Source of the DNA: Eledone cirrhosa
Taxonomy: Eukaryota
Direction of reading: 5' to 3'
Length of the DNA: 64,000 nt
Assembly (NCBI GenBank): GCA_964016885.1
Contig: OZ024750.1
Location: 3,410,001 to 3,474,000 of the forward strand
The notes beneath the pieces were generated by a model. The model was not told the DNA's origin. It worked only from the letters and a program-made list of their open reading frames with translations, and ran no database searches. Of the stretch, positions 3,130 through 59,042 are shown piece after piece; position 1 is the first letter of the stretch, and every line of letters begins with the position of its first letter. A program made the translations under genes and the position numbers.

Positions 3130-3395
3130 GTATATAGAATAAGAAAATGAAAAGTAGTTTCAGATGTTAAAGTTCTTTATTGATAATGCTGTGATACATA
3201 TTTCAATGACAGTGGCCACACTCTTTGGTGTACCCAGTGCCGTGACTTCATCAGACAGCTTCTGATGATGTCACATTAAAGGACTTTAACATCTGAAACT
3301 ACTTTGCATTTTCTTATTCTAAATATACTCCATCACTCCTATGTGGAAAAAGGACGTTGAGTGCTCGAATCGAATTGCAACAAAGTAACCTTAAG
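3130..3395 (-). mobile_element. Penelope-like/retrozyme-like fold-back remnant with hammerhead motif
   Basis: Inverted repeat 3130-3179 / 3277-3328 encloses a minus-strand gctgt-CTGATGA...GAAA-tatgta-TC-acagc motif followed by AATAAA; flanked by (TA)n. Confidence 0.55.
3188..3259 (-). ncRNA. Candidate minimal type-I hammerhead ribozyme
   Basis: 5-bp stem I gctgt/acagc, CUGAUGA and GAAA cores, near-palindromic stem III (atatgtat), AUC cleavage triplet; stem II is long and degenerate. Confidence 0.5.
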
Positions 3396-3760: not shown

Positions 3761-3857
3761 CCATATATATATATATATACACACACATATATATATATAT
3801 ATGTGCCCCCATATATATATATATACACACACATATATATATATATGTTTAAATTTG

Positions 3858-3992
3858 GTGGTTTACCACTGGGTAGAATTGGTCATTCTGCAATGTTAAC
3901 AATGATGTAATATGAGAAAAGCACTCAGCATTATGCAACTCATCCATCTTTGATGTTGAATCATGTTGGTGATGAGGGAACGGAGTAAATTG
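3858..3992. mobile_element. Unclassified TA-associated repeat (ggtttaccactgggtagaattggtcat family)
   Basis: Similar sequence at 11323-11480 and 17035-17160. Confidence 0.6.
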
Positions 3993-4183
3993 GTATAGGG
4001 TCATTCCATGTCCAAATTACTCAGAAGATCCCAAGTCACCCCTCAGATGTATATACATCTATTATGCAAATTATACCTGAAGATGTCACCGGGTTCTTAC
4101 ACAACCTGGCCACTGAAATGTACATAGTGTTTGCAGAAATAAATAATTAAGGAAATTCAACATATTTGGCCTTCCGTCATTTC

Positions 4184-4226
<43 letters not shown>

Positions 4227-4254: not shown

Positions 4255-4930
4255 AAAAAACAAGTTCTGGTAAGCAAGAAAGAAGATAAGCGGCTGATCT
4301 GATGAGGAAGGTAGCCCTGCTCAATATGTAGAAAATATAATGTACACAATGTAAATCTTGGCTACACAAGAGGTGTAATGGTACAGAAGAAAAGGTAAAC
4401 TTTGTATGTTGTAGATGCACAAGGATAGTTAGTAGTAAGGGCACAAGGAAAATAAACATTTTCCAATCCAAGAAAGGTTCCATACAGGTAGTTGATAGCT
4501 TCTGTTACTCTAGTGATAAAATTAATAAGGGAGGAGGCTGTACTGAAAGCATGACAGCGAGAGTAAGAACAGGATGAAAAAAAAGTTCAGTGCACTGCTA
4601 CCTCTGTTGACAGCGAAAGGTTTCTCTTTACAAAAGAAAAGCTGGCTGTAGGATGTGTATGAGGTGTGATATTGCATGACAGTGAGACATTGGCAGTGAA
4701 CATGGAAGATATGTGAAGGCTGGAGAGAAATGAAGCAATCCTGTTTCGATATATGTGCAATATTAATATACATGAAAGGCAAAGCATAGATGAGCTGAGA
4801 GAAAGGCTGGATATAAAAGGAATTAGATTGGAGAGAAGACTGCACTGGTATGGACATGTGATGTGTGTGGATGATAAGTGTCGGGTGAAGAAATGACAAG
4901 AAATCCCAGTGGAAAGGATTAGTATCTCTG
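4255..4930 (+). pseudogene. Highly decayed RTE LINE ORF fragment
   Basis: Residual CTQCKSWLHKRC, SETLAV and WYGHVM motifs match the RTE ORF at 56199-56978; many stops and frameshifts. Confidence 0.8.
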
Positions 4931-11164: not shown

Positions 11165-11318
11165 ATATCATCATCATCATCATCGTTTAACGTCCATCTT
11201 CCACGCTAGCATGGGTATATCATCATCATCATCATCGTTTAACGTCCATCTTCCACGCTAGCATGGGTATATCATCATCATCATCATCGTTTAACGTCCA
11301 TCTTCCACGCTAGCATGA
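11165..11318 (-). repeat. 52-bp RTE 3'-terminal segment in tandem x3
   Basis: atatcatcatcatcatcatcgtttaacgtccatcttccacgctagcatgggt at 52-bp spacing. Confidence 0.9.
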
Positions 11319-11493
11319 GTGTGGTTTACCAATGGGTAGAATTGGTCATGATGCAATAGTAAGAAAAACACTCTACGTTATGTAACTCAGCCATTATAGA
11401 TGTAAAATCACGTGGTTGGTGCAGGAATGGAGTTAAATATTTATTTAAAACAACAGAAGGCCAGGTTGCAGAATCCTTTTAAACTATATATAT

Positions 11494-11691
11494 AAGGAAA
11501 ATGTTCAAGACCCCGACGGCAGAGCTCAAGCCGTTTCGACAGCTATTTCTTGACCGAGTCCAGAAATAGCTGTCGAAACGGCTTGAGCTCTGCTGTCGAG
11601 GTCTTGAACATTTTCCTTTTACCCACTCTATTACCCTAAGTATTGAGTACGCTGGTGTGTCTACCTGGTTCCTTGCCACACTTCCTTCGTT
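11494..11691 (+). mobile_element. Long-hairpin TA-inserted element (copy 1)
   Basis: About 61-bp arms over 11494-11618 with a 3-nt loop, then a unique 70-bp tail; homologues at 21405-21562, 40780-40900 and 50883-51079. Strand assignment is arbitrary. Confidence 0.8.
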
Positions 11692-11704
11692 ATATATATA
11701 TATA

Positions 11705-11883
11705 TCGTGAGGTTGTGAGTTTGATTCCTGGACCAGGCGACGTGTTATGTCCTTGAACAAGACACTTTATTTCATGTGCTCCTTCTACCTGGAGTTCTGA
11801 CTTATAGATAGTATTTGCAATTGGAAAGACCAAGGGAAACATTGTTTCCTCTGTTCGATTTGATGAAAGTTAATCGACTGTCG
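11705..11883 (+). mobile_element. CORE-SINE with alternative tail (family C), 5'-truncated
   Basis: B box GGTTGTGAGTTTGATTCC plus CCTTGAACAAGACACTTTATTTC; tail matches 52253-52350. Confidence 0.78.
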
Positions 11884-11949
11884 ATATATATAAGTAATAA
11901 TAAAGCATAAGAGAAAATCGTATAGGAAGTGAGAAAGAGATATAGAGGA

Positions 11950-12095
11950 AGAATCGACCCCAGTACTAAACTGGTACTTTTTTATCAATTTTAAATGGAT
12001 GAAAGGCAAAGTTGACCATGACGGAATTTGAACTCAGAGAACAGAGAACGAAAACAAATACCACTTTTATTCGATGTTCTAACAACTTTGCTGAT
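11950..12095 (-). mobile_element. SINE family B, diverged
   Basis: ctggtactttt...ggatgaaaggcaaagttgacc...gaatttgaactcaga. Confidence 0.72.
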
Positions 12096-13084
12096 CTGTT
12101 GCTTGGTGCTAGAAACATAAGCAACCATAAAAATCCTCTTTTCCTGAACCAGTGAAATATTCAAAACAAATAAATATAAACCATATTTGCTTGATAAACA
12201 GGACTGACGTATCTTATAACAGTTGGTTGTTATTGTGCCAGCTGAGATCACCAATGATAGTTGAGGAAAATATATATGTAAACAATATTAATGATGGTAG
12301 AGAGAATATTTGGGTGAGAGAAGCAAAATAGCAAGATATGATTCTTACAGTTTGTACATAATAGCCAGAATAAATATACCCACACTCCTTTTTAGTAATA
12401 ATTGGTGAAGATTTCACATTAAATAAATAAAATAAAATAAAACTTTATGTTGTAAGAAATATGCGAATGGGCCGAAAGGTTCATAGGCTGACTATGAAGG
12501 AGTGATGTTAGAGCTGTGAAATCTTCCAATTATAATGTATATTTATAATGGAGTTTTGAAACAATATCAATAATAGTCTAAAACTTGCGACAATCAAACA
12601 ACCTGAAAGCTCTTGATTCCAAGATTCATGTCTCTGCTTATTTTAAGATGTTCATTCTTATATTAAAATCTTCCATTATAATTTTATTTAAGAAATTTTT
12701 ATTAAGTAATGTTTCAAACATCAATTAACTAATGAAAAGATTAGCTATCTCATTACATTCTTTAAAGTTTCAAAATTAGTTGAGACGCATAGGCAGTGTA
12801 TTTCATTAGCCATATGGCAACAAAAGGGTTAAAACTTATGATAGCACCACTCTATAAGTTCAAACACTGCATAAGAGGAAATAAGATTATTCCCCAATGT
12901 AAAGGTGATTAGATAGGTTTTTGTGGGTTCCACTGTGGTTCTCATTTATATTGTAAGGTGTACAGGTTTCTTACATAATGAATTTTAGCAAGTTTTTCTA
13001 AGACTCTTAAAGAAGCTTCCGGGATTTTAGTTTTTGTATAGAGTGAGCAAACAATGTACATGTGTGAGTGTGTGTGTATTTGTA

Positions 13085-13402
13085 CATCATCATCATCATT
13101 TCATTTTACATCCACTTTTTCCCTGCTTGCAAGGGTGGGACGGGAACTGATTCTGGCTTGATTTCTACAGCTGGATGCCCTTCCTAACACCAACCTCATT
13201 TACAGTGAGTGCTGGGTGCTTTTTGGCCGTGGCACCTCCACAACCACTTTGCAGTGGAATCATAGGGACCCCAGTCCCTATCATCTCATTTCTACAGCTG
13301 AGTAAATAAAGTGTCTTGCTCAAGGAAACAACACATCACCCGGTCTGAGAATTGAACTCACAACCTTTTGATTGCAAGGTCAATGCTCTAACCACTAAGC
13401 CA
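13085..13402 (-). mobile_element. CORE-SINE family A
   Basis: Near-identical to 3416-3760 with a short deletion in the CORE region. Confidence 0.88.
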
Positions 13403-14065
13403 TATATTTGAACATGTACATATACAAATATATTTATCTAATATGTGTGTATCTGTACATATAGATATACATATATAAATATATTTATCTAATGTGTATG
13501 TATTTATACATATATAAATATAGTTATCTAATATGTGTGAACTAAACTTGTTTAATATTCAATGATTTGTTCCTAGTCTTTCTAGCATGTAATTAAAGCA
13601 GGTCATATAGAGATGACTTATAATTAAGATATATACATTCTTACCAAAGATTTCTTAATCATATTTTCAGAAAACTGGAAATATTGCTTAAAACTTTCCA
13701 GGAAGAAAATGTCATTGTAAAATTAAATTCAATTTCTTGAAATAACAAAGATAAAATTGGAGCAGCAGTTTCATTTATCTCATCTCAAACTATATGACAC
13801 ATTCATTCTGTTCCATTAATTGATTTCTTTTGACTAAGCATGAAATGCCACTATTTTTAGTCAACAAAATGAGAAGTTGGGATATCCATGTCTTTCCTCC
13901 TTAGTGATATAAAGGAAGTAAATTAATTTCAGGTGGAAATTAAAATGAACTCCAAAGTATTCACCAGCTTCATTAAATATTATAAGAGGGTTAGGAGGCC
14001 TTATCTATGTATTTTATTAGTATAAAGTGTGTTCTGATGTATAAACACATTGGTATTATTACTGT

Positions 14066-14310
14066 AATACGGCCCTTTACAATCGGAGTTCGAATCCTGC
14101 CGAGGTTAACTTTGCTTTTCATCCTTATGGGGTCGATAAAATAAAGTACCAGTAATGTACTGGGTAATTGCTGGCCTTGTGCCAAAAGTAGAAAAAATTA
14201 TTACTGTAAATCCTACCAAGATCAATTTTGCCTTTCATTCTTGTAAAGTCAATAAAATAAAGTACCAGTCATGTGTTGGGGTGGATATAATTGACTCCCT
14301 CTCCCCATTA
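14066..14310 (+). mobile_element. Two tandem partial SINE family B copies
   Basis: ggagttcgaatcctgccgaggttaactttgcttttcatccttatggggtcgataaaataaagtaccag followed by a second diverged body. Confidence 0.8.
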
Positions 14311-15313
14311 AAAAAAAATAAAAATCATTTCTTCAGAGTACAGGGAATCTCTCAGAGTAAAATATTCTGGTCTTATCGCTTTGAAGTTGGATTTAAATCT
14401 TAGCCTAGAGCAAAATAATGTTTCAATTCTCCTAAATAAATGTGCTACTTCTCAAGAAAATAACAAGTAAACTGCATCCATAACACCAAAAGAAATAATT
14501 GAAATAACATTTCTTGCGGCTATTTCATCTCATACAAACCCTATCTCTTTATCAATAAACTATTTTTTCCAGCCTGTGGCGTTTGAAACATTTGAGAAAA
14601 CTAGGCTGCTGACACAAAGTTCTTGTCATCGTTGGCGGCTCACTTTACCGAGGTGTCAGGTGATGTCCATGAGGTTACTTGGTTGTTTAAGAGCTTTAGC
14701 CTCACCATCACATGTAGTAATGCTGCAAGCATGTTGCCTTGCCTCCAAAATTTCAAAAGACCCTTGTGGGTTGTAACCTATTGACACTGTATTGAATTGA
14801 TGAGTTTTTTTAACTTCTTTTTAATCACTTTGATTATATATTTTTTCCTAGCAATAATTAATTGATTATATCTATGTACTTCTATTTAATCTTATATATT
14901 TGTTATATGATAATAAAATATTTATTGTATGTACTTCAATTCATTTCAAACGCTATCTAGGTACATGCAGTCCCCTAGCATTGTTAATGTTTGGTTAATC
15001 AACAAATACTTTACTTAACACTGTAACTTATAGTTCTACATTTCAGTCAACTGAATGTCAAACCTTGGAGTTGATAATATAAATAGCAATTCTAAGTTTT
15101 ATTATCAAATCAAGGATAGAATTAGTGTAGAGAGAGAAAAGTTAACACTTTAATTGCTCTGTTACGTTTAGGAGTCTGACTGTAAATGTCATTTTATGTT
15201 GTTGAGTAATTAATAATTAATTTGGTATAATTGATCTGTAACAAAGCTGTTAACAGGCATACATTGTTGGATTTATAACATTTATAGCAATACACCAAAT
15301 TATACTGATGTGT

Positions 15314-15418
15314 ATTGAGGGTTGGCTGAAAGTTTATAGGCTGACTATGAAGGAGTGATGCTAGAGCTGTGAAATCTTGCATGCATTAATTTCAACTCAT
15401 TAATAACTGCATTGTTTC
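15314..15418 (+). mobile_element. Mariner-like MITE, left part (interrupted by RTE)
   Basis: gagggttggctgaaagtttataggctgactatgaaggagtg matches 12460-12526 and 35650-35834. Confidence 0.62.
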
Positions 15419-16399
15419 ATAGGCTTCACATGCAGTAGCTGTACTGGGACAGCAAGCAGCAAACAGCCACATGAAACAAGTACCACCAATCTCAGGGAGC
15501 GCTCTGTAGAAACAGTAGACAGCTTCTGCTACCTAGGTGACCGAATTAGCAGCGGAGGTGGGTGTTCAGAAAGTACAATAACTAGGGTAAGAACGGGATG
15601 GAAGAAGTTTAGGGAACTACTACCACTGCTAGCTGCAAAAGGCTTCTCCCTCAAAATGAAAGGCAGACTGTATGATGCGTGTATCCGAACAGCAATGTTA
15701 CATGGTAGTGAGACCTGGGCGCTGAAGGTGGAAGACTTACGTAGATTAGAGAGAAACGAAGCCTGCATGCTCCGATGGATGTGTAACAGTAATATACGCG
15801 AACGACAAAGCATAAATGAATTGAGAGAGAGACTGAGCATAAGAGGAATCAAATGCTGTGTGCAGGAGAGGCGGTTGCGTTGGTATGGACATGTGATGCG
15901 TATGAAGGATGACAGCTGCATAAAAAGGTGCAGAGCACTAGAAGTCGATGGAAACCGTGGAGTGGGGAGACCCAGGATGACCTGGGATGAGGTGATAAAA
16001 GCCAACCTTACCCAATTACACCTCTCAAAGGCGATGATACACGACCGTGACCTCTGGCGTCACGCAGTAATACAGAGTACCCGACCTCCCATGGGTACAA
16101 GCTGAAGCATATAGACAATATGCCCCCACACCCCCCCACCGCAAGGTGGTTGTGGAGGTGCCACGGCAAAAAAGCACACACTGTAAAGTGGACGTGTAGG
16201 CGTCACGAAAAAGCACCCAGCACACACTGTAAATGAGGTTGGTGTTAGGAAGGGCATCCAGCTGTAGAAACCAAGCCAAATCAGTTCCTGTATGAGCAAG
16301 GCATGGTCAGCCGACCAGACACTGCCCACAACAGGACAACCCGTCTAACCCATGCTAGCGTGGAAGAACGGACGTAAAACGGTGATGATGATGATGATG
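15419..16399 (+). mobile_element. 5'-truncated RTE-clade LINE with 8-bp TSD
   Basis: Open frame 15422-16105 (FCYLGD, MLHGSETW, RLRWYGHVMRM, GRPRMTW), 3' UTR, (GAT)n tail; ATTGTTTC at 15411-15418 and 16400-16407. Confidence 0.92.
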
Positions 16400-16409
16400 A
16401 TTGTTTCTT

Positions 16410-16916
16410 TTCAAACTGGCTGTAACTGGCCACTCATACAGATGTTAAGGTATTGTTCTCAAAATAAATAATTTCAAAATCTCATAGATTTGATATTATG
16501 TGAGATAATTATGTAAGGTAAAGGCTTTATCGTGAAAATACAATAGTGTATATAATAATATATATAATAGTATATTTAATAGTATATTTAATAGTATATA
16601 TAATAATAAATATAATAGTAAATATAATAATATATATAATAATATATATAATAGTAAATATAATAATATATATAATTGTTTCTACTTTAGGCACAAGGCC
16701 AGCAATTACCCAGTGCATTACTGGTACTTTATTTTATCGACCCCGTAAGGATGAAAAGCAAAGTTAACCTCGGCGAGATTTGAACTCAGATCGTAAAGGG
16801 ACATAACTATGCTGGAAAGCATGGCGTCCGACCCTCTACCGATACTGCCAATCCACCGCCCTTATAATAATATATATAATAGTATATATAGAGTATTGTA
16901 AATGTTAACGGGTTAA
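16410..16916 (+). mobile_element. TTAA-MITE family 1, left end lost, interrupted by SINE B
   Basis: Body matches 46651-46879 and resumes after the SINE as gagtattgtaaatgttaacgggttaa. Confidence 0.75.
16676..16863 (-). mobile_element. SINE family B, full length
   Basis: Minus: agggcggtggattggcagtatcggtagag...gagttcaaatc...aaagtaccag...aaacaattat. Confidence 0.88.
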
Positions 16917-16991
16917 ACATGTTTTTTTTACTCATATTTCTTTATATAACTCTACAGTTGTCTGCATATTGTTTTTTATAAATATAAATAG

Positions 16992-17026
<35 letters not shown>

Positions 17027-17027
<1 letters not shown>

Positions 17028-17525
17028 GGTTTTTTGGTTCACCACTGGATAGAATTGGTCATTCCGTATGGTCAATCTTGATGTAATATTATGGAGAGTA
17101 CTCAACGTAATGCAGCTCACCCGTCTTCGTTTGTGTAGTTGGTGTGAATACGGAGTTAATTATTATAAATAAAATAAAAGGAGGCTGGACTGGTGTAAAT
17201 CCTTGAAAGGTTTATTATCTACTAATGACCATCTGGTGAGGGGGTGACATTATAAGCCTTCGCCCCCTCACCAGATGGTCATTAGTAGACCGAGTAGCCA
17301 CCACTTGAGGGCGACTGACCAAGATGAAGGCAGCTAGTTGGTCAGTCGTCCTCTTTGTCTTTGATTTTCGGACCCATGGATTTTATCTGTTATATTCCTT
17401 TGTTATATTTCGAATACCTGATGATATCACTGGACTCATACGGAACCCGGTCATTGAAATGATCATAGTATAATAAACCTTTCAAGGATTTACACCAGTC
17501 CAGCCTCCTGTTATTTTATTTATAT
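17027..17525 (+). mobile_element. Penelope-like/retrozyme-like multi-hairpin element
   Basis: 55-bp outer inverted repeat (17164-17218 / 17470-17524), inner hairpins 17218-17289 and 17307-17353, hammerhead-like motif plus AATAAA; (TA)n on both sides. Confidence 0.6.
17414..17471 (+). ncRNA. Candidate minimal type-I hammerhead ribozyme
   Basis: atac-CTGATGA-[stem II]-GAAA-tgatca-TA-gtat: 4-bp stem I, palindromic ATGATCAT stem III, AATAAA at 17472-17477; stem II is imperfect. Confidence 0.55.
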
Positions 17526-17527
17526 AT

Positions 17528-17565
<38 letters not shown>

Positions 17566-17643
17566 ATCTGTAGAATCTCATCTATATTAAAACTTTTATA
17601 CTCTGCTATGTATTGAGTACCTTACTTACTGTGGTTACCTCCG

Positions 17644-17737
17644 ATATATATATATACTATATATATATTATATATATATTATATATTATATAGATATTAT
17701 ATATTATATAGATATTATATATTATATATATATTATG

Positions 17738-17768
<31 letters not shown>

Positions 17769-17771
17769 ATG

Positions 17772-17802
<31 letters not shown>

Positions 17803-17844
17803 ATGTATATATATATAATGTATATATATTATATATATATTATG

Positions 17845-17899
<55 letters not shown>

Positions 17900-17931
17900 T
17901 ATATATATATATATATTATATATATATTATG

Positions 17932-18018
<87 letters not shown>

Positions 18019-18111
18019 ATATATATATTATGTATATATATATTATATATATATATATATATATTATATATATTATATATATATATATATTATGTATATA
18101 TATATATATAT

Positions 18112-18144
<33 letters not shown>

Positions 18145-18274
18145 ATCTATATTTATATATATATATATATATATTATCTATATATATATATATATATATA
18201 TTATCTATATATATATATATATATATATTATCTATATATATATATATTATCTATATATATATATATATATTATC

Positions 18275-18311
<37 letters not shown>

Positions 18312-18433
18312 ATATATATATATATATTATATATATATTATATATATATTATATATATATTATATATATATATATATTATATATATATTATATATATATT
18401 ATATATATATATATATTATATATATATATATAT

Positions 18434-18464
<31 letters not shown>

Positions 18465-18473
18465 ATATATATA

Positions 18474-18519
<46 letters not shown>

Positions 18520-18528
18520 ATATATATA

Positions 18529-18571
<43 letters not shown>

Positions 18572-18623
18572 ATTATATATATATTATATATATATATTAT
18601 ATATATATATTATATATATATAT

Positions 18624-18686
<63 letters not shown>

Positions 18687-18695
18687 ATATATATA

Positions 18696-18741
<46 letters not shown>

Positions 18742-18750
18742 ATATATATA

Positions 18751-18793
<43 letters not shown>

Positions 18794-18886
18794 ATTATAT
18801 ATATATTATATATATATATTATATATATATATTATATATATATATTATATATTATATATATATATATATTATATATATATATATAT

Positions 18887-18917
<31 letters not shown>

Positions 18918-19351
18918 ATATATATATGTATATATTATATATATATATATATTATATATATATATATATATTATATATATATATATATATTATATATATA
19001 TGTATATATTATATATATATATATATATTATATATATATATTATATATATATTATATATATATATTATATATATATATTATATATATATATATATATATA
19101 TTATATATTATATATATATATTATATATATTATATATATATATATATATTATATATATATATATCTATTATATATATATATATTATATATCTATTATATA
19201 TATATTATATATATATATTATATATATAATATATATCTATTATATATATATTATATATATATATTATATATATATATTATATATACGTATTATATATATA
19301 TATTATATATATATATTATATATACGTATTATATATATATATTATATATAT
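17644..19351. repeat. 1.7-kb interrupted (TA)n array
   Basis: (TA)n with regular TT interruptions and an internal 222-bp higher-order duplication. Confidence 0.97.
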
Positions 19352-19687
19352 AGGCACATGGCTTAGTGGTTAGAGCATTGGCCTTGCAATCAAAAGGTTG
19401 TGAGTTCAATTCTCAGACCGGGTGATGTGTTGTTTCCTTGAGCAAGACACTTTATTTCACATTGCTCCAGTTTACTCAGCTGTAGAAATGAGATGATAGG
19501 GACTGGGGTCCATATCATTCCACTGCAAGTGGTCGTGGAGGTGCCACGGCCAAAAAGCACCCAGCACTCACTGTAAATGAGGTTGGTGTTAGGAAGGGCA
19601 TCCAGCTGTAGAAATCAAGCCAGAATCAGTTCCCATCCCACCCTTGCTAGCAGGGAAAAGCAGACGTAAAATAATGATGATGATGAT
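19352..19687 (+). mobile_element. CORE-SINE family A, full length
   Basis: aggcacatggcttagtggttagagc...gagttcaattc...ccttgagcaagacac...ggaagggcatccagctg...gatgatg. Confidence 0.9.
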
Positions 19688-19924
19688 CGTTATATATATA
19701 TGTGTGTGTGTGTATGTGTATGTGTGTGTGTGTGAGTAATTACATATGTATAAACTACTGTGAACTTGTAAATGCTCAATAACTAATGGCTAACAACTAT
19801 GAACTTGTAAATGCTCAATAAACATACACAACATTGTTGAAGACATGTAAACATAAACATTATTGTGCAGTTTACATATTTCAAGTGGTGCATCTACATA
19901 TAATTGGCTTGTTGTGCAGTTTCA

Positions 19925-20120
19925 TACATACACACATGCATACACATATATACATACACACATATGCATACACACACACATATATGTACATACATACACA
20001 CACACATATGTACATACACACACATATGTACATACACATACATACACATGTACATACATAGACACACATGTACATACATATACACACCACACATATACAG
20101 ACACAAACATACATACATAC
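19925..20120. repeat. (CA/TA)n compound microsatellite
   Basis: Direct reading. Confidence 0.92.
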
Positions 20121-20489
20121 AAGCAATTCCTAAATAGTATTAGTACAAAAATGACAAGGTAAATAAAATATATATTCACTCCTACCTGTAATATCAACAG
20201 AAGAGATTACTTTTCTTGGACACCTGACAGATAAATAGAAACAAATCCTTCTTGTTATATCTAAGCAAAAGACCCAATTCTACCAATTTGGTGTAAGTAA
20301 ACATCTGCTTTCTTATACTGACTTTCTATTGTACCCAGTTAAAAATATATTCTATATTCCCCACAAACATTAAACCAAACTGTTTAGTCATTTACTATCA
20401 ACATTTGGAGGATTTTAGATCACAGTGTAATTTTTCTGGCCTTGTATATTGTACTTAGTTAAAAATATATTGTATATTCACAACAAACA

Positions 20490-20689
20490 TTAACCCTTGA
20501 ACATTTACATTATATTTTCATCATAAAGGCTTTACCGCACATAATATCGAATCTACGAGATATTGATATTATTTATTTTGAGAACAATACCTTAACATCA
20601 GTATGAGAGGCTGGGAAAGAGCCAGTTTGAACAGAAAGAGGTGAGAAAATTCTGGCTGGATTTGGCCGGTTTAAATTCTAAAGGGTTAA
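20490..20689 (-). mobile_element. piggyBac-type TTAA MITE family 1
   Basis: TTAA-CCCTT...AAGGG-TTAA; a paralogous empty site with a single TTAA lies at 20370-20373. Confidence 0.88.
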
Positions 20690-21370
20690 ACCAAACTGTT
20701 TAGACATTTACTATCAACATTTGTACATTATTCTATGTACTATACATGCACCTTTGATGAGTTGTAGTGCACTTGGGCACTGTACACAATAATTTCATTA
20801 TTTTATTTTTTATTTGGGCAATTTTAGATAATGTAGTTTTTCTGACCTTATATATTGTATCATCATCATTTCATTTTACGTCTGTTTTTTCCCCACTTGC
20901 AAGGGTGGGACAGGAACTGTTTAGTGGTTTACTATCGATATGTGAGGTATTTTTCTGGCTCTATCTATTATACTCAGTTAAAAATATATTGTATATTCAC
21001 AACAAAAACTAAAACAAACTGTTTTTTTACTCTCAGTATTTGAGGTATTTTAGATCACAGTGAGGTTTTTTCAGGTCTTATTTTCTGCTTAACAAACAAT
21101 AGCTACATACAATATTTTTTTCTAGAAATGCATAATTCCTTCCACCAATTATAGACATTGTGTTGTGTCAAAGACAGCGCTATGTTTTTAGATTTCATCA
21201 AGGACATTTCTTCATGTAATATAGATAATCATTTTCACAAAATATGCACACAATTATACAGGTACATATGTGCAACTATATACATATATATAAATATATA
21301 TATGCGTACACACATATACAATATATATATACACACACACACAAATATATATATATATATATACACACAC

Positions 21371-21404
<34 letters not shown>

Positions 21405-21405
<1 letters not shown>

Positions 21406-21562
21406 CAAAGGAATTGTGGTAAGGAATAAGATGGACCATAACGCACCAGAGTACTCAATACTTAGGGTAGTAGAGTGGGAGATAGGAAAAAGTATGACCC
21501 CGACGGCAGAGCTCAAGCCGTTTCGACGGCTATTTCTGGACTCAGTCCAGAAATAGCTGTCA
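21405..21562 (-). mobile_element. Long-hairpin TA-inserted element (reverse copy, one arm truncated)
   Basis: Reverse complement of the 50940-51079 region, followed by gaccccgacggcagagctcaagccgtttcgacggctatttctgg. Confidence 0.8.
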
Positions 21563-21582
21563 AAATATATACACACACACAC

Positions 21583-21627
<45 letters not shown>

Positions 21628-21642
21628 TATATATATATATAT

Positions 21643-21686
<44 letters not shown>

Positions 21687-21710
21687 TATATATATATATA
21701 TATACACACA

Positions 21711-21746
<36 letters not shown>

Positions 21747-22126
21747 AGAGAGGGAGAGAGAGGGGGGAACATTCTAGAATATCTTAATCTAATATAACAT
21801 TAATGTTAAAATAGATTTCTTTTGTTTTCTATTGAAAGAGAAAGGAAGTAGAGAGACTATAGAGTTCACCTGTAATGACAGATTAAATAGTTGGTTTTAT
21901 GTAAACTGTTGTTGTATCATGAGAAATGTCTTCTCATAAACTCTCTAATATATATCTATATCATCACTATCATCATTGTCACTGTTTAACATCTATTTGT
22001 ATACACTAGCATCATATTTATGCATATATATATATATATATATATACACATATGTAGTTATACACTATATATAAATATATATATATATGAAAAAGAACAC
22101 AAGAGCGTCTACAACATCAAAAGAGT

Positions 22127-22181
22127 TTTATTGGCTAACAATGTTTCTTCCTTACGTGTAACCGTAGGATTCATCAGAGCT
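22127..22181 (-). ncRNA. Degenerate hammerhead-like motif plus AATAAA in a TA island
   Basis: Minus: gct-CTGATGA-atcctacg...cgtaaggaa-GAAA-cattg-TT-agc-c-AATAAA; the stem II closing pair is mismatched. Confidence 0.42.
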
Positions 22182-22211
22182 ACAAAAGGGGTTTGATTGG
22201 TGTTATGGACT

Positions 22212-22368
22212 CTACATATACACATACATATACACACATGTATACATATATATATACATATATATATCTATACATATCCGTACATGTATAGATATATATA
22301 TATGTATATATATATATACATATATATATATCTATACATATACGTACATGTATAGATATATATATATG

Positions 22369-22400
<32 letters not shown>

Positions 22401-22422
22401 CATATACGTACATGTATACATA

Positions 22423-22458
<36 letters not shown>

Positions 22459-22477
22459 CATATACGTACATGTATAC

Positions 22478-22510
<33 letters not shown>

Positions 22511-22541
22511 CATATACGTACATGTATACATATATATATAC

Positions 22542-22576
<35 letters not shown>

Positions 22577-22876
22577 CATATACGTACATATATACATATA
22601 TATATACAATATATATATATACATATATATATATATACATATGCATACATGTATACATATATATATATACATATACATATACGTATACATATATATATAT
22701 ACATATACATACACGTACATGTATACATATATATATACATATATATATACATATACATATATACATATACATATATACATATACATATATATATATACAT
22801 ATATATACATATATATATACATATATATATACATATATATATACATATATATACATATATATATATATACATATAC

Positions 22877-22907
<31 letters not shown>

Positions 22908-22914
22908 CATATAC

Positions 22915-22964
<50 letters not shown>

Positions 22965-23086
22965 ATACATATATATATATATATACATATATATATACAT
23001 ATACATATATATATACATATATATATACATATATATATACATATATATATATACATATATATATACATATATATATATACATATAC

Positions 23087-40605: not shown

Positions 40606-41310
40606 GGAGGATTTAGCTACTATTTTTAGCATGTCAAGTGACCACTTCTGCTGGCCAACACACTTCTAGCCACTGATTTCTATCCATTGAGGTAAATTTT
40701 ACCCAATGCTGTCATTGATGGCGTTATGCTGTTTTAACATCTTCCTTGTGTTTCCTTCTTCCCATTATTCTATATCTAGCTGTCAAAATGGTCGGAGCTC
40801 AGCCACCGGGGTCCTGAATCTTTTCATATTACCCATTTTATTATCTCAAGTATCGAGTTCTCTGGTGGGTTATGGTCTACCTGGTTTTTACTGCACCCTA
40901 TTATATATATATATATTGTTATACTCTGGGAGGGTCATGCTGCCAATAAAAACACATGCACTTGTTGGTTTTCATTTCAATTTATTATAAATTTCCAGTA
41001 GTTGGTTAGTTTGATAACTGGATGGTTGTTTATATATTGTCAAAGCCCTTTCGTCACACATTTTGTGACCTCCACAGTGACTAGGTTTTTATTTTGTGTC
41101 TCTCCTTTGTTCTGTCCTATATATATATATATATATAACGCTAACCTCAGTGGGATTCGAACCCAGAACATAAAGAGCCATAACTCTATGCTGCAAAGCA
41201 CGTTATCTGATGCCATTGTAATAGTAAGACAGGAGAAATAACAATAACCAACAAAACCACGACAGTATGAGAGTGGCAATGATATTTACATTGTGATAGC
41301 GATATCAGTC

Positions 41311-50872: not shown

Positions 50873-50882
50873 ATATATATAT

Positions 50883-51079
50883 ATAGGAAAATGTATGACC
50901 CCCGACGGCAGAGCTCAAGCCGTTTCGACGGCTATTTCTGGACTCAAATAGCCATCGAAACGGCTTGAGCTCTGCCATCGGGGATCATACTTTTTCCTAT
51001 TTCCCACTCTACTACCCTAAGTATTGAGTACTCTGGTGTGTTATGGTCCAGTTGGTTCCTTACCACAATTCCTTTGTTT
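50883..51079 (+). mobile_element. Long-hairpin TA-inserted element
   Basis: Hairpin 50883-51000 plus tail cccactctactaccctaagtattgagtac. Confidence 0.8.
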
Positions 51080-55805: not shown

Positions 55806-57812
55806 ATGATCATCATCATCATCATCATCATCGTTTAACGTCCGTGTTCCACGCTTGCATGGGTTTGGACGGGAGTTTTCCCACTTGAGGCAAGAGTGGT
55901 TGTCTTGCTCGCATAGGACTGTCTGGCAGGTTTTCTACAGCTGGATGCCCTTCCTAACACCAACCACATTTACAGTGTGGGGCTGGGAGGTTTTTACCGT
56001 GTTGCCTACACGGCCACATTACAGCGTGGACTGTGTGTTTTTTTTTGTCGTGACACCTACACGACCTCATTTGTTTCGGCCTGGATGTTGTGGCACCAAC
56101 ATAACTTTACATTGAAAGGGGCGGTGTGGATGGGGTGGGGGGACGGGGGTGTATTTTGTTAGAGATGCCTACTGACTGTAGTAGGTTTTACTTTGTATTT
56201 AGGTAAGGCGGGTCTTCTCTATTACTGAGTACCGCCAAAGGTCTCGGTCCAGTGACATTGTCTTGGAGAGGTGTAAGTGTGTGAGGTTGGAATTTATCAG
56301 CTCGTCCCAGGTTTTTCTGGGCCTGCCTAGTCCGTAGCTACCGACTATCTTTATTGCCCTGCACTTTGTTATACAGCTGTCGTCTTTCATGCGCATCACG
56401 TGACCATACCAACGTAGCCTTCTCTCGAGTAAACAACATCTGATCCCTCTTATTTCTAATTTTTTCCTTAGTTCGCTTATGCTTTGCCGTTCACATATAT
56501 TACTATTACACATCCAGCGGAGCATGCAAGCTTCGTTCCTCTCTAGTCTGCATATATCCTCTGCACACAATGCCCAGGTCTCACTGCCATGCAACATTGC
56601 TGTTCGTATGCAGGCATCATACAACCTGCCTTTCATTTTTAGGGAGAACCCTTTAGCGGCTAATAGTGGTATAAGCTCTCTGAACTTTTTCCATCCAGTT
56701 CTGACTCTAGCTACTGTACTTTCAGAGCACCCTCCCCCACTGCTGATTTTGTCACCCAGGTAACGGAAGCTGTCCACTATTTCTATAGAACCCTCTGCGC
56801 AATTGAAAGAGCTAGTATTTTGTGGGCACTTGCTGCTACTTATTGCACCAGAGCACCGGCCACATGTAAAATCTATGTTCTTAGTTAGCTTACCTGTGAT
56901 CCCACTACATCTTTTATGCACCCATACTTTGCATTTGGGACATAAAATGGAGTTTCTACCTACGCCTTTCCTACACACTGAGCATGGCCATTTCCCGGAA
57001 GGGACCGTCGCCTTATTTTCTTTCCTACAAACTAGAACTTTAGTCTTAGCCAGGTTAATTTTAAGACCTTTTGATTCTAGGCCGTGCTTCCATGTTTAGA
57101 ATTTCTTCTCTAGCTCGGCCATTGATTCAGCTATGAGCGTTAGATCATCTGCGTATAGGAGTTCCCATGGGCAGCCGGTCTTGAACTCCACTGTTATAGC
57201 CTGAAGGGCAATAATAAATAGTAGGAGGCTAAGAACAGAGCCCTGATGAACACCAACTTTTACACTAAACTCTTCACTATATTCGTTGTTAATTCTAACC
57301 TTGCTGACCGTTTCTTTATACATGGCTTGTATAGCTCTCACAAGCCATTCGTTAACACCTAGTTTTCTAAGAGCCCACCAGATAATGGAACGGGGGACTC
57401 TGTCAAAGGCTTTCTCCAAGTCAACAAAAGCTAAGTATAAGGGTTTACTTTTAGCTAGGTACTTCTCCTGTAGTTGTCGTACAATGAAAAGAGCGTCTGT
57501 GGTACTTTTGCCTGACACAAAACCGAACTGCATTTCATCTAGATCAATTCTCTCTCTGATTAGTTGCGCTATTACTTTTTCCATGACCTTCATGACCTGG
57601 TCGATTAATTTAATGCCTCTATAGTTACTCCTATCTAGGGTATCTCCTTTACCCTTGTAACAGTTAATGATGATGCTGCTACGCCAGTCCTTCGGAACAA
57701 CCCCATTCTGTATGACTTGGTTTACTATCCGGGTGACCATGGTGTGTCCCACCGTTCCAGAGGCTTTCAGCATCTCAGCAACTATTTCCGAAGGCCCAGC
57801 CGCCTTACCCAT
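55806..57812 (-). mobile_element. 5'-truncated RTE-clade LINE (RT, PHD-like finger, C-terminus, 3' UTR)
   Basis: GKAAGP, NYRGIKL, QFGF, FVDLEKAFDRV, GVHQGSVLS, LLYADD, FRYLG, RLRWYGHVMR; (GAT)n tail at 55806-55832. Confidence 0.96.
56199..57812 (-). pseudogene. RTE reverse transcriptase ORF with one in-frame stop (57096-57098); endonuclease missing
   Basis: ORFs 57096-57812 and 56199-56978 are in the same frame; the intervening codons read TWKHGLESKGLKINLAKTKVL...KWPCSVC. Confidence 0.92.
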
Positions 57813-59042
57813 CGTTTTGTAAGACTAAATACACTGCTGAGGTTTCTTTCGACAAACAACATAGAAAGAATTTACTCTATCTAATTGACAATTTCAGTTT
57901 TTTAATTCCACATATTATTATTATATATTTTTTAAATAAATTTTTTTTTTTTCGCATTTTTAGTTTCTATGTTAGCGTGGAAGATGGACATTAAACGATG
58001 ATGATGATGATCTTCCATTAATTTTTTATTTTTTATATTTTGTGAACTTTTAGAGAAAATAGGCAAAGCTAAGACAAATCTTAAAACATTTTCAATGAAC
58101 ACCAATTATATGATAAAAACTATATTGAAATGAAATGCTTCAACAGCTAAATTCAGATATGAAGAAGTGCATTATAACAGCACTTGTTGAAGCACATTTA
58201 ATAAAGTTTTCAGATTTACAAAAATTGCATCTTGCTTCTATTTCAATTTTATATTATTTTCATTTGAATCATGTGAGCGAATTAATTGTAAAAAAAATGG
58301 TCTCCAATATATGGTTTGAAGATTAATAGAAGAGATAAATTAATGGAAAGAATAAAGGTATATTATTGGAAGAGGCAGCTAAATAAACATGTAAGCTTTT
58401 GTTAACTCTTCTTTTTTGGTGTAGTGTGGGAGGGGTAATAGGGGGGGGGGGATATCATATATTGGATAATATCAGAAATAAACTATTGTCTATATCAATT
58501 TTTGTGTTTATTACAGAATCTAACCAAAATAATGGATAATTTTCTAATTTCCTAAGAATCTCATAAATCATTTTCTTTTTGCTAGAATGAGTGAAAATGA
58601 GTGGAACTGACAGAATGGAAGAAAGAAAAAAGGTGCAGATTACTTGGCACAAAGACTAAGTTCTTATCTCAATTTGGGTGTTAAATTGCATTCTACTTGA
58701 CTCCATCTAGTTGAAGCTTAGGTACAAAAGCTGAGGTAACTAGGTGAAGTTGATACAGTTGATATTACCTTTGACGAAGTGAAGGTTAAGTAAAACATAT
58801 GTAGTGAAAGGATTACATAATGAAGAAGAAGAAGAAGAAGAAAGTATCTATGATTCAGAGCCATGAAGAGCTGATACAAAGTAAGAAATCTTTAGAATTC
58901 AACAGAAGATCAGTTTTTGAAGGAGAGAGTTTCAATTCAATCCACCAAATCTAATATATTTTATGTATTCATTGAAATGTAACTCCTGATGGAGTTGTAG
59001 GGACATTGTAGTTTTAGTGATATACAGTGTATCTTGGGCATT

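Follow-up and report, generated by a model that had tools for sequence, protein, structure and literature searches.

A hammerhead-bearing repeat in (TA)n of Eledone cirrhosa: a probable two-arm Penelope-like insertion with a bulged hairpin in its 3' tail

Positions 17027-17525 of the stretch of Eledone cirrhosa DNA analysed here (64,000 nucleotides, the window) hold a cluster of hairpins and a hammerhead-like motif inside a (TA)n run, and the question is whether this cluster is an RNA that replicates with its structure or the outcome of a particular mode of insertion. The window is AT-rich, microsatellite-rich animal DNA, whose other repeats presumably resemble octopus repeats. When the sequence of 17027-17525 was checked, every feature described in the original prediction was found in its place. 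The locus is one copy of an abundant repeat family sitting in (TA)n, and the insert consists of two 5'-truncated copies of one sequence joined head to head, with the following parts:

16994-17024, no strand: left flank of the target, (TA)15 (repeat scan).
17027-17163, minus strand: 3' extension (the 'tail'), about 140 nt, inverted (shared with relatives, and a joint in a contig of run X1).
17097-17155, minus strand: bulged tail hairpin CTC-NNN-loop-N'N'N'-2 nt-GAG-YRCY (pattern searches and three of six published Hydra consensus ends).
17164-17218, minus strand: left arm of the outer repeat, an inverted copy of 17470-17524 (length varies between copies).
17218-17246, minus strand: left arm of hairpin 1, an inverted copy of 17261-17289 (junction product; lowest depth of the stretch).
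17247-17524, plus strand: forward 5'-truncated copy, with non-coding 3' UTR-like sequence, hammerhead and 3' segment (depth rises 3'-ward).
17307-17353, plus strand: hairpin 2, 16 bp (minority subfamily).
17414-17471, plus strand: minimal type I hammerhead (core, helices and covariation).
17414-17417 and 17468-17471, plus strand: hammerhead stem I, 4 bp.
17418-17424, plus strand: hammerhead core CTGATGA, with GAAA at 17456-17459.
17459-17466, plus strand: stem III palindrome, 8 nt, with the predicted cut between 17467 and 17468 (AUA cut triplet).
17472-17477, plus strand: AATAAA, candidate poly(A) signal.
17525-17565, no strand: right flank of the target, (TA)n (run 17517-17565; repeat scan).

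The arms of the outer inverted repeat (17164-17218 and 17470-17524) are complementary at 54 of 55 positions. Hairpin 1 has 27 perfect pairs (17218-17244 with 17263-17289), or about 30 when wobble pairs are counted, and hairpin 2 has 15 Watson-Crick pairs and one G.U. The absence of an ORF, noted in the original prediction, was confirmed: the element has no frame of 90 codons or more, its longest stop-free stretch is below 50 codons, and in the frame check no open frame starts in the hammerhead. The repeat scan found no tandem repeat unit in the element.

Relatives of this copy and a second (TA)n-associated family are present elsewhere in the window:

3846-4187, plus strand: relative B, an inverted tail and a forward copy with hammerhead (core 4077), no arm overlap (sequence comparison).
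11322-11490, plus strand: relative C, an inverted tail with some 40 nt of the inverted 3' segment, truncated by (TA)n and a further repeat.
3130-3395, minus strand: relative D, diverged, with the layout of the focal copy (inverted tail, inverted 3' segment matching at 43/45), core 3254.
11491-11700 and 50874-51078, plus strand, and 21395-21565, minus strand: second family.
40777-40911, plus strand: second family, single-armed.

Relative B has neither an outer repeat nor large hairpins and is bordered by (TA)n on both sides, and relative D has a 14-bp junction hairpin that is the counterpart of hairpin 1. The targeting of (TA)n was as predicted, since all three complete window copies are inserted there, C being broken up by other repeats; AATAAA stands within about 10 nt of stem I in three of three window copies. 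The second family has a 56-bp hairpin, with one apex common to three copies, followed by an 80-nt extension that contains the tail motif. It is the mirror case, the extension being on the longer arm, and its arm carries an apparent 3' half of a hammerhead (GAAAC, a 5-bp stem with palindromic loop, GTC). Its fixed apex may derive from snap-back priming on stem II. In all six two-armed insertions (focal copy, B, D and three of three in the second family) exactly one arm is tailed.

The stability expected from a fold of 17160-17525 was indeed observed (-191.2 kcal/mol, z = -17.9, equalled by none of 100 shuffles), but it was no better than that of shuffles once the inverted arms were removed, z being -1.07 for the forward part, -0.13 for the tail and -0.87 for copy B. 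The complementary arms contain no G.U pairs, as expected from copying. Moreover, they match within a copy (54/55 in the focal one, 43/45 in D) as compared to 49-61% between copies, which indicates that arms are made anew at each insertion. A 7-nt microhomology (6/7 matching) connects 17283-17289 with 17466-17472. The large hairpins are thus likely by-products of insertion and not part of the family RNA, and no annotation as a structured-RNA gene is warranted; 'highly structured' applies to the focal insertion, not to the RNA of the family. The idea of a multi-hairpin cassette that replicates as a selected RNA was not supported, given that the outer repeat and hairpin 1 differ from copy to copy and the rest folds like shuffles. 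On hairpin 1, the Rfam search of 12000-23000 gave nothing but sub-threshold microRNA models.

Four of eleven public runs were aligned at 80% likeness, namely X1, X4 and X9 from organism A and X5 from organism B, leaving out X2, X3, X10 and X11 as well as X6, X7 and X8 (organisms C-E, shares 0.04-0.07). Matches amounted to 3403 contigs in X1 (study P1), 122 contigs in X4 (study P1; a contig set of 88 million letters), 4225 of 12,467,656 raw reads in X9 (study P6) and 23 contigs in X5 (study P2). Of these runs, X1 may stem from near the source of the window itself. The many genomic copies that had been anticipated are therefore represented by thousands of matching contigs and reads from two organisms, besides the three relatives in the window. 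Summed depth in X1, which is not equal to copy number and in which a hole proves nothing, falls on the right side from 801,669 (17452-68) to 34,819 (17350-66) and 11,213 (17248-64), and on the left side from 254,963 (17044-60) to 32,511 (17146-62) and 3,964 at 17178. It declines from both inferred start sites toward the 5' side of the RNA, as expected from 5' truncation at two start points, a gradient that subfamily divergence at the 80% cut-off can also produce. Variable 5' truncation with an attached inverted 5'-truncated copy, as in Penelope-like elements (PLEs), was found. Partial tandems with direct pLTRs were seen neither among the four window copies nor among the joints listed for X1, X4, X5 and X9.

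These data bear on the reading of the locus as a non-autonomous, retrozyme-like RNA, in which the outer stem and hairpins would be selected and the whole cassette would spread, perhaps via circular RNA. In its favour are the low z of the complete fold, the recurrence of the junction between tail and inverted segment (29 X1 contigs, 2 X5 contigs and 67 of the 73 X9 reads at 17178), and hairpin 2, which is common to a subfamily (X1 contigs 4-7 and X4 contig 11 span 17247-17368 or further, hairpin 2 included) and tolerates G.U changes. However, none of the pieces listed spans the whole cassette, the left arm of hairpin 1 has a depth in X1 of 524 (about 1/1500 of the hammerhead) as compared to 11,213-16,530 for the right arm, and 14 contigs have unrelated letters upstream of 17247. 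The shuffle-like z values of the forward arm and of B, the lack of G.U pairs in the arms and the competition of the outer stem with stem I also speak against it, as do the missing tandem unit and the lack of a tail-to-head joint among the joints listed. We consider this reading improbable. Retrozymes are defined by tandem repeats in the parts of PMC7229834 and bioRxiv 10.64898/2026.07.22.740005 drawn on here. Non-LTR retrozymes, as described there, resemble the focal element in being non-coding, of 300-400 nt scale, with a type I hammerhead and an origin from PLE pLTRs, and an axolotl motif is reported to have U.U at the base of helix II; the focal element differs from them in its lack of tandem repeats, its head-to-head arms and its single hammerhead.

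A MITE or similar DNA element, with 55-bp terminal inverted repeats, a TA target duplication and a hammerhead-like motif arisen by chance, would fit the near-perfect inverted ends of 17164-17524 and the TA on their flanks. Nevertheless, depth in X1 is about 120-fold higher on the right arm than on the left one (476,631 at 17496 as compared to 3,964 at 17178), B has no left arm, arm length varies and the hammerhead covaries as an RNA, so that this explanation is very improbable. The original prediction had named a MITE as the finding that would overturn it; fixed terminal inverted repeats at both ends were not present in all copies. The layout, the hammerhead, the variable inverted 5'-truncated arms and the (TA)n site all agree with the Penelope-like origin proposed at the outset, and we regard an origin as a two-arm PLE insertion as quite probable.

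An observation that the original prediction had missed concerns 17027-17163. Read on the minus strand, this segment continues directly from the 55-nt 3' segment, and we infer that it represents the 3' extension of the element itself, inverted. The tail is found also in copies at 3859-3997 (73%) and 11322-11436; it is about 140 nt long in the focal copy and B and about 75 in D, with respect to a published range of 30-40. In one X1 contig, 17143 is connected to 17520 on the opposite strand; the shorter side comprises 64 letters, so that this join reaches into the hammerhead by at least 13 nt more than the focal arm does. Other junctions in reads and contigs connect 17208 to 17436 and 17182 to 17437. 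The overlap of the arms is accordingly variable, being about 0 (B), 19, 45 (D), 55 (focal copy), 60 and at least 64. The recurrent junction between tail and inverted segment is also the one seen in organism B, in X5 contigs 18 and 19.

Alternatively, 17027-17163 could be a separate repeat with an AT-rich end that is a favoured target; a short PLE copy bearing two 3' ends in inverted orientation (17164-17524) would have inserted there repeatedly. The junction is AT-rich, the PLE endonuclease prefers AT-rich DNA, its own pLTR included, according to the part of PMC11167929 considered, and the segment has its own depth profile. On the other hand, the segment is found with the hammerhead arm, always in one orientation, in the focal copy, B and D, even where the inverted 3' end is lacking (B), it varies in length and sequence together with its partner (D), and the same motif lies in sense directly behind the hammerhead and TA-rich site in two Hydra consensi. 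A separate repeat is hence hardly probable, and the segment is treated below as the tail of the two-arm insertion.

Three other candidates were tried and dropped. The tail as the start of an ORF had in its favour an open 47-codon frame in copy B and third positions that differ more than the others (17 vs. 10 and 10; 14 vs. 6 and 7), but non-synonymous changes exceed synonymous ones (18:7 and 13:6), the focal copy and C contain frameshifts, and the hairpin motif occupies the place of the conserved 'peptide'; a protein search with the tail frame found nothing, which is weak evidence. A 9-nt match between loop II (17437-45) and 17062-70, considered as a switch, is absent from B. A DIRS-like internal complementary region was discarded because the start of the element has no complement in the sequence preceding the left arm.

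The loose hammerhead core pattern is weak on its own (14 matches in 64 kb), hence the call rests on covariation between copies. Stem I is ATAC/GTAT in the focal copy, ATAC/GTGT in B and GCTGT/ACAGC in D, the stem III palindrome is different in each of the three copies (computed self-duplex energies of -7.2, -7.0 and -2.2 kcal/mol for the focal copy, B and D, respectively), and the second pair of stem II is A-U, G-C and G.U in the same order. This covariation bears out the minimal type I hammerhead with palindromic stem III claimed in the original prediction, and the comparison of copies indicates that the hammerhead is a conserved trait of the family. It lies in a terminal repeat on the sense strand, as in PLEs. 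The covariance-model search that had also been suggested gave no support, no hammerhead being among the 114 Rfam matches obtained in 12000-23000 up to E 5.

Stem II is long, with U.U at its base and a C.C mismatch, and two of its pairs are damaged in the focal copy (17431 and 17435). Its restoration in other copies, which had been predicted, was found in part. T>C at 17431 (1122 of 1203 X9 reads) and C>T at 17435 (1161 of 1180) make the majority letters those that restore the pairs, with X1 and X5 concurring, whereas the repair of the C.C mismatch to G-C was not seen: the mismatch is retained in three of three window copies, and counted over X1, X4 and X9 a C>G change at 5% or more occurs only at 17301; changes to other letters at the two C.C positions may stand among the 107 rows beyond those listed. 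One X5 contig covers 17403-17472 with two differing letters. In folding calculations, the pair probability of stem I is about 0.01 in a transcript through the cassette and about 0.05 in the isolated motif, and in the read-through transcript the outer repeat occupies two of the four stem I pairs (17470-17471). The models indicate that the monomer is poorly formed, in the cassette and in the isolated motif alike, and cleavage by the hammerhead is predicted to require dimerization or the help of a protein. That of the focal copy is probably weakened.

A minimal hammerhead consensus with weak dimer activity is reported in PMC4209133 (Cervera and de la Pena 2014), from which the following points are taken. 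The PLE minimal hammerheads share with the focal one a short helix I, a long helix II and a palindromic 15.2-16.2 region, and they too are mostly single dispersed copies, with some opposite-strand pairs. Unlike them, the focal element has no bulged base after A9 followed by a G10.1-C11.1 pair; U.U stands there in the focal copy and B, and A-U in D.

Other hammerhead-like sequences were noticed. At 22125-22182 on the minus strand, a motif with core at 22177, short stem I and near-palindromic stem III is followed by AATAAA, in a sequence unrelated to 17027-17525. Further loose CTGATGAG...GAAA matches lie at 4299 and 29910 on the plus strand and agree with the core pattern alone. A motif scan of metagenomes gave six loci with no similarity beyond 21-22 letters, hence chance matches, and none in viral contigs.

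The tail contains a bulged hairpin of the form CTC-NNN-loop-N'N'N'-2 nt-GAG-YRCY, which is present in all extensions. Its inner three pairs are CGT/ACG in the focal copy, CGT/ATG in B, TAC/GTA in the second family and TGC/GTA at 17601; in C and D five of six pairs persist, and loop length ranges from 3 to 48 nt. The sequence pattern gave nine matches at seven sites as compared to 0.26 in shuffles, one of the nine being a chance match across a microsatellite, and the pairing pattern six as compared to 0.88 (maximum of 4 in 100 shuffles); both patterns were drawn after the sites had been seen, so that the enrichment is post hoc, and no new site was found. All six pairing-pattern matches have (TA)4 within 118 nt, with respect to a background of 20%. 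In the window copies the hairpin starts about 8 nt behind the end point of the tail-less arms.

In six Hydra consensus ends examined by eye, the motif lies behind the hammerhead and a TA-rich site in Hydra-2_Amil and Hydra-2_Ajap and occurs twice, at the 5' start, in Hydra-1_Ajap, with inner pairs TAC/GTA, TGC/GCA, TGT/ACA and CTG/CAG; Hydra-1_Crog has part of it, and it was not seen in Hydra-1_Amil or Hydra-1_Obim. Six 9-mers, picked after the Hydra ends had been read, gave seven matches in the 584,131-character supplement of PMC8557442, in which line breaks may hide others: four in Hydra ends and three inside Naiad or Chlamys sequences. A published description of the hairpin was not found in the open literature, subscription papers and Repbase reports being outside the scope of the search. 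As judged from the sequences, the tail of about 140 nt appears to be new, and so does its covarying hairpin, which lies some 8 nt beyond the inferred first start site. The hairpin is a predicted recognition element for the reverse transcriptase/endonuclease near start site 1.

The parent is likely a Hydra-like PLE, as suggested by the U.U base of stem II, the targeting of (TA)n and the bulged tail hairpin common to published Hydra-clade ends; the clade is not proven and no ORF is linked. In the parts of PMC8557442 (Craig et al. 2021) used here, PLEs show inverted 5'-truncated copies and a one-ended tail of 30-40 bp, the Hydra clade has hammerheads and inserts in (TA)n in 26 of 27 families, and in the hammerhead table a U.U base of stem II is given for 14 of 25 Hydra families and a stem III starting with A-C for all 25. 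With respect to that clade, as presented there, the focal element is alike in its (TA)n site, type I hammerhead near the 3' end, 4-bp stem I and palindromic stem III, in the TA-rich site followed by an extension with bulged CTC/GAG hairpin (Hydra-2_Amil, Hydra-2_Ajap), and in the 5'-truncated inverted copy, noted for Penelope-13_HM. It is unlike it in that its stem III starts with A-U, its stem II has at least 12 positions and a C.C mismatch, and its tail is about 140 nt long. Hydra-1_Obim has another hammerhead, and the 11-12-mers of the family had no matches in that supplement except two chance ones in coding DNA.

The same two-arm mechanism with a parent of another clade (Neptune, Nematis, Naiad) or an undescribed one deserves some weight, although we consider it unlikely. 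None of the 25 Hydra rows has the A-U start of stem III or the long stem II, and PMC8557442, in the parts considered, describes cephalopod Naiads that also insert in (TA)n and a microsatellite bias for Neptune. Yet the same source describes Naiads as lacking canonical hammerheads, and the 9-mer matches number three of seven in Naiad/Chlamys as compared to four in Hydra ends, in a comparison without Neptune and Nematis ends. Among octopus elements, PMC13282606 reports, in the part used, 31 recently active PLE families in Octopus vulgaris, and the present family may already be catalogued in that library or in Repbase.

The predicted linkage to Penelope ORFs with GIY-YIG or reverse transcriptase domains was not found: 19 of the 93 window frames were scanned with no match to GIY-YIG or PLE reverse transcriptase, and 12 PLE peptide motifs searched in six frames, the way in which decayed ORFs were checked, gave four isolated matches. 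5'-truncated copies are expected to lack the PLE ORF, and the evidence on the family comes from the window and four runs. A reverse transcriptase fragment (PF00078, E 1.8e-24) lies at 57096-57824 on the minus strand and adjoins a PHD-finger frame (56199-57095, minus strand, E 9.4e-07); we take this fragment to resemble the RTE type and not PLE.

If the locus is a two-arm PLE insertion, its arms could have formed as follows. The RNA would have the order 3' UTR, hammerhead, AATAAA, 55-nt segment, TA-rich site 1, tail of about 140 nt, site 2. The PLE protein, a reverse transcriptase with GIY-YIG endonuclease, would introduce nicks into the two strands of a (TA)n run, with the bulged hairpin just behind site 1 serving as its landmark. 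The cDNA primed at site 1 would be the right arm, stopping at 17247, and that primed at site 2 (near 17025) the left arm, comprising the tail and then the 55-nt segment. The left arm would stop 2 nt before the predicted ribozyme cut, jump to 17289 and add 29 nt, the jump being a putative template switch via the 6/7 microhomology. Once the cDNA ends were joined, the outer inverted repeat and hairpin 1 would remain as by-products. That this second arm ends 2 nt before the predicted cut points to a template that had been cleaved; uncleaved templates serve too, as indicated by the contig extending beyond the cut. A target-site duplication is unreadable within (TA)n.

Part of this scheme has a counterpart in Poseidon PAc from Anolis. 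In the part of PMC11167929 (Frangieh et al. 2024) considered, the PLE protein is shown to cleave AT-rich DNA and to extend the two strands, with synthesis beginning at two internal sites on either side of the tail; it is a predicted dimer, and the hammerhead cuts only with the protein and is dispensable for insertion in vitro. The focal element would share with Poseidon PAc, as described there, the two reverse transcription start sites bounding the tail, the AT-rich target and the hammerhead upstream of the start sites. The two differ in that the sites of Poseidon PAc are 30-40 nt apart inside the ORF, whose start codon is in the hammerhead, whereas the inferred sites of the focal element are about 140 nt apart and no frame opens in its hammerhead. 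We tentatively propose, as a possibility that we rate below even, that Hydra-type PLEs share a bulged CTC/GAG hairpin that docks a dimer of the reverse transcriptase-endonuclease and fixes start site 1 about 8 nt upstream, in the manner of telomerase RNA, and that the protomers prime both target strands at sites 1 and 2, with one arm per site.

The origin of inverted arms and one-ended tails in PLEs is an open question in the part of PMC8557442 considered and is partly answered in that of PMC11167929. The present family supplies very many natural junctions on which the rule of one arm per start site can be tested, and the candidate hairpin covaries across coral, sea cucumber and the families of the focal genome. 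If the hairpin does set the start site, the family would offer the clearest genomic record of the mechanism and a minimal RNA for an in vitro system, and the hammerhead cut would mark the stall point of the second arm. The layout also helps to recognise and orient ORF-less PLE remnants that resemble MITEs or structured RNAs.

Some minor observations concern the sequence within and around the insertion. CAC...GGTCATT occurs three times (17040-17063, 17265-17283 and 17428-17455), and GGTCA five times on the plus strand as compared to 0.6 expected on both strands. To the right, 17565-17645 (plus strand) is a short unique island between two (TA)n runs that has a tail hairpin at 17601 and probably represents a third family's tail. 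A degenerate (AT)n array of 1.7 kb (17644-19352) lies directly right of the 17027-17525 insertion, and the window also contains minisatellites with units of 35, 42, 48 and 52 bp.
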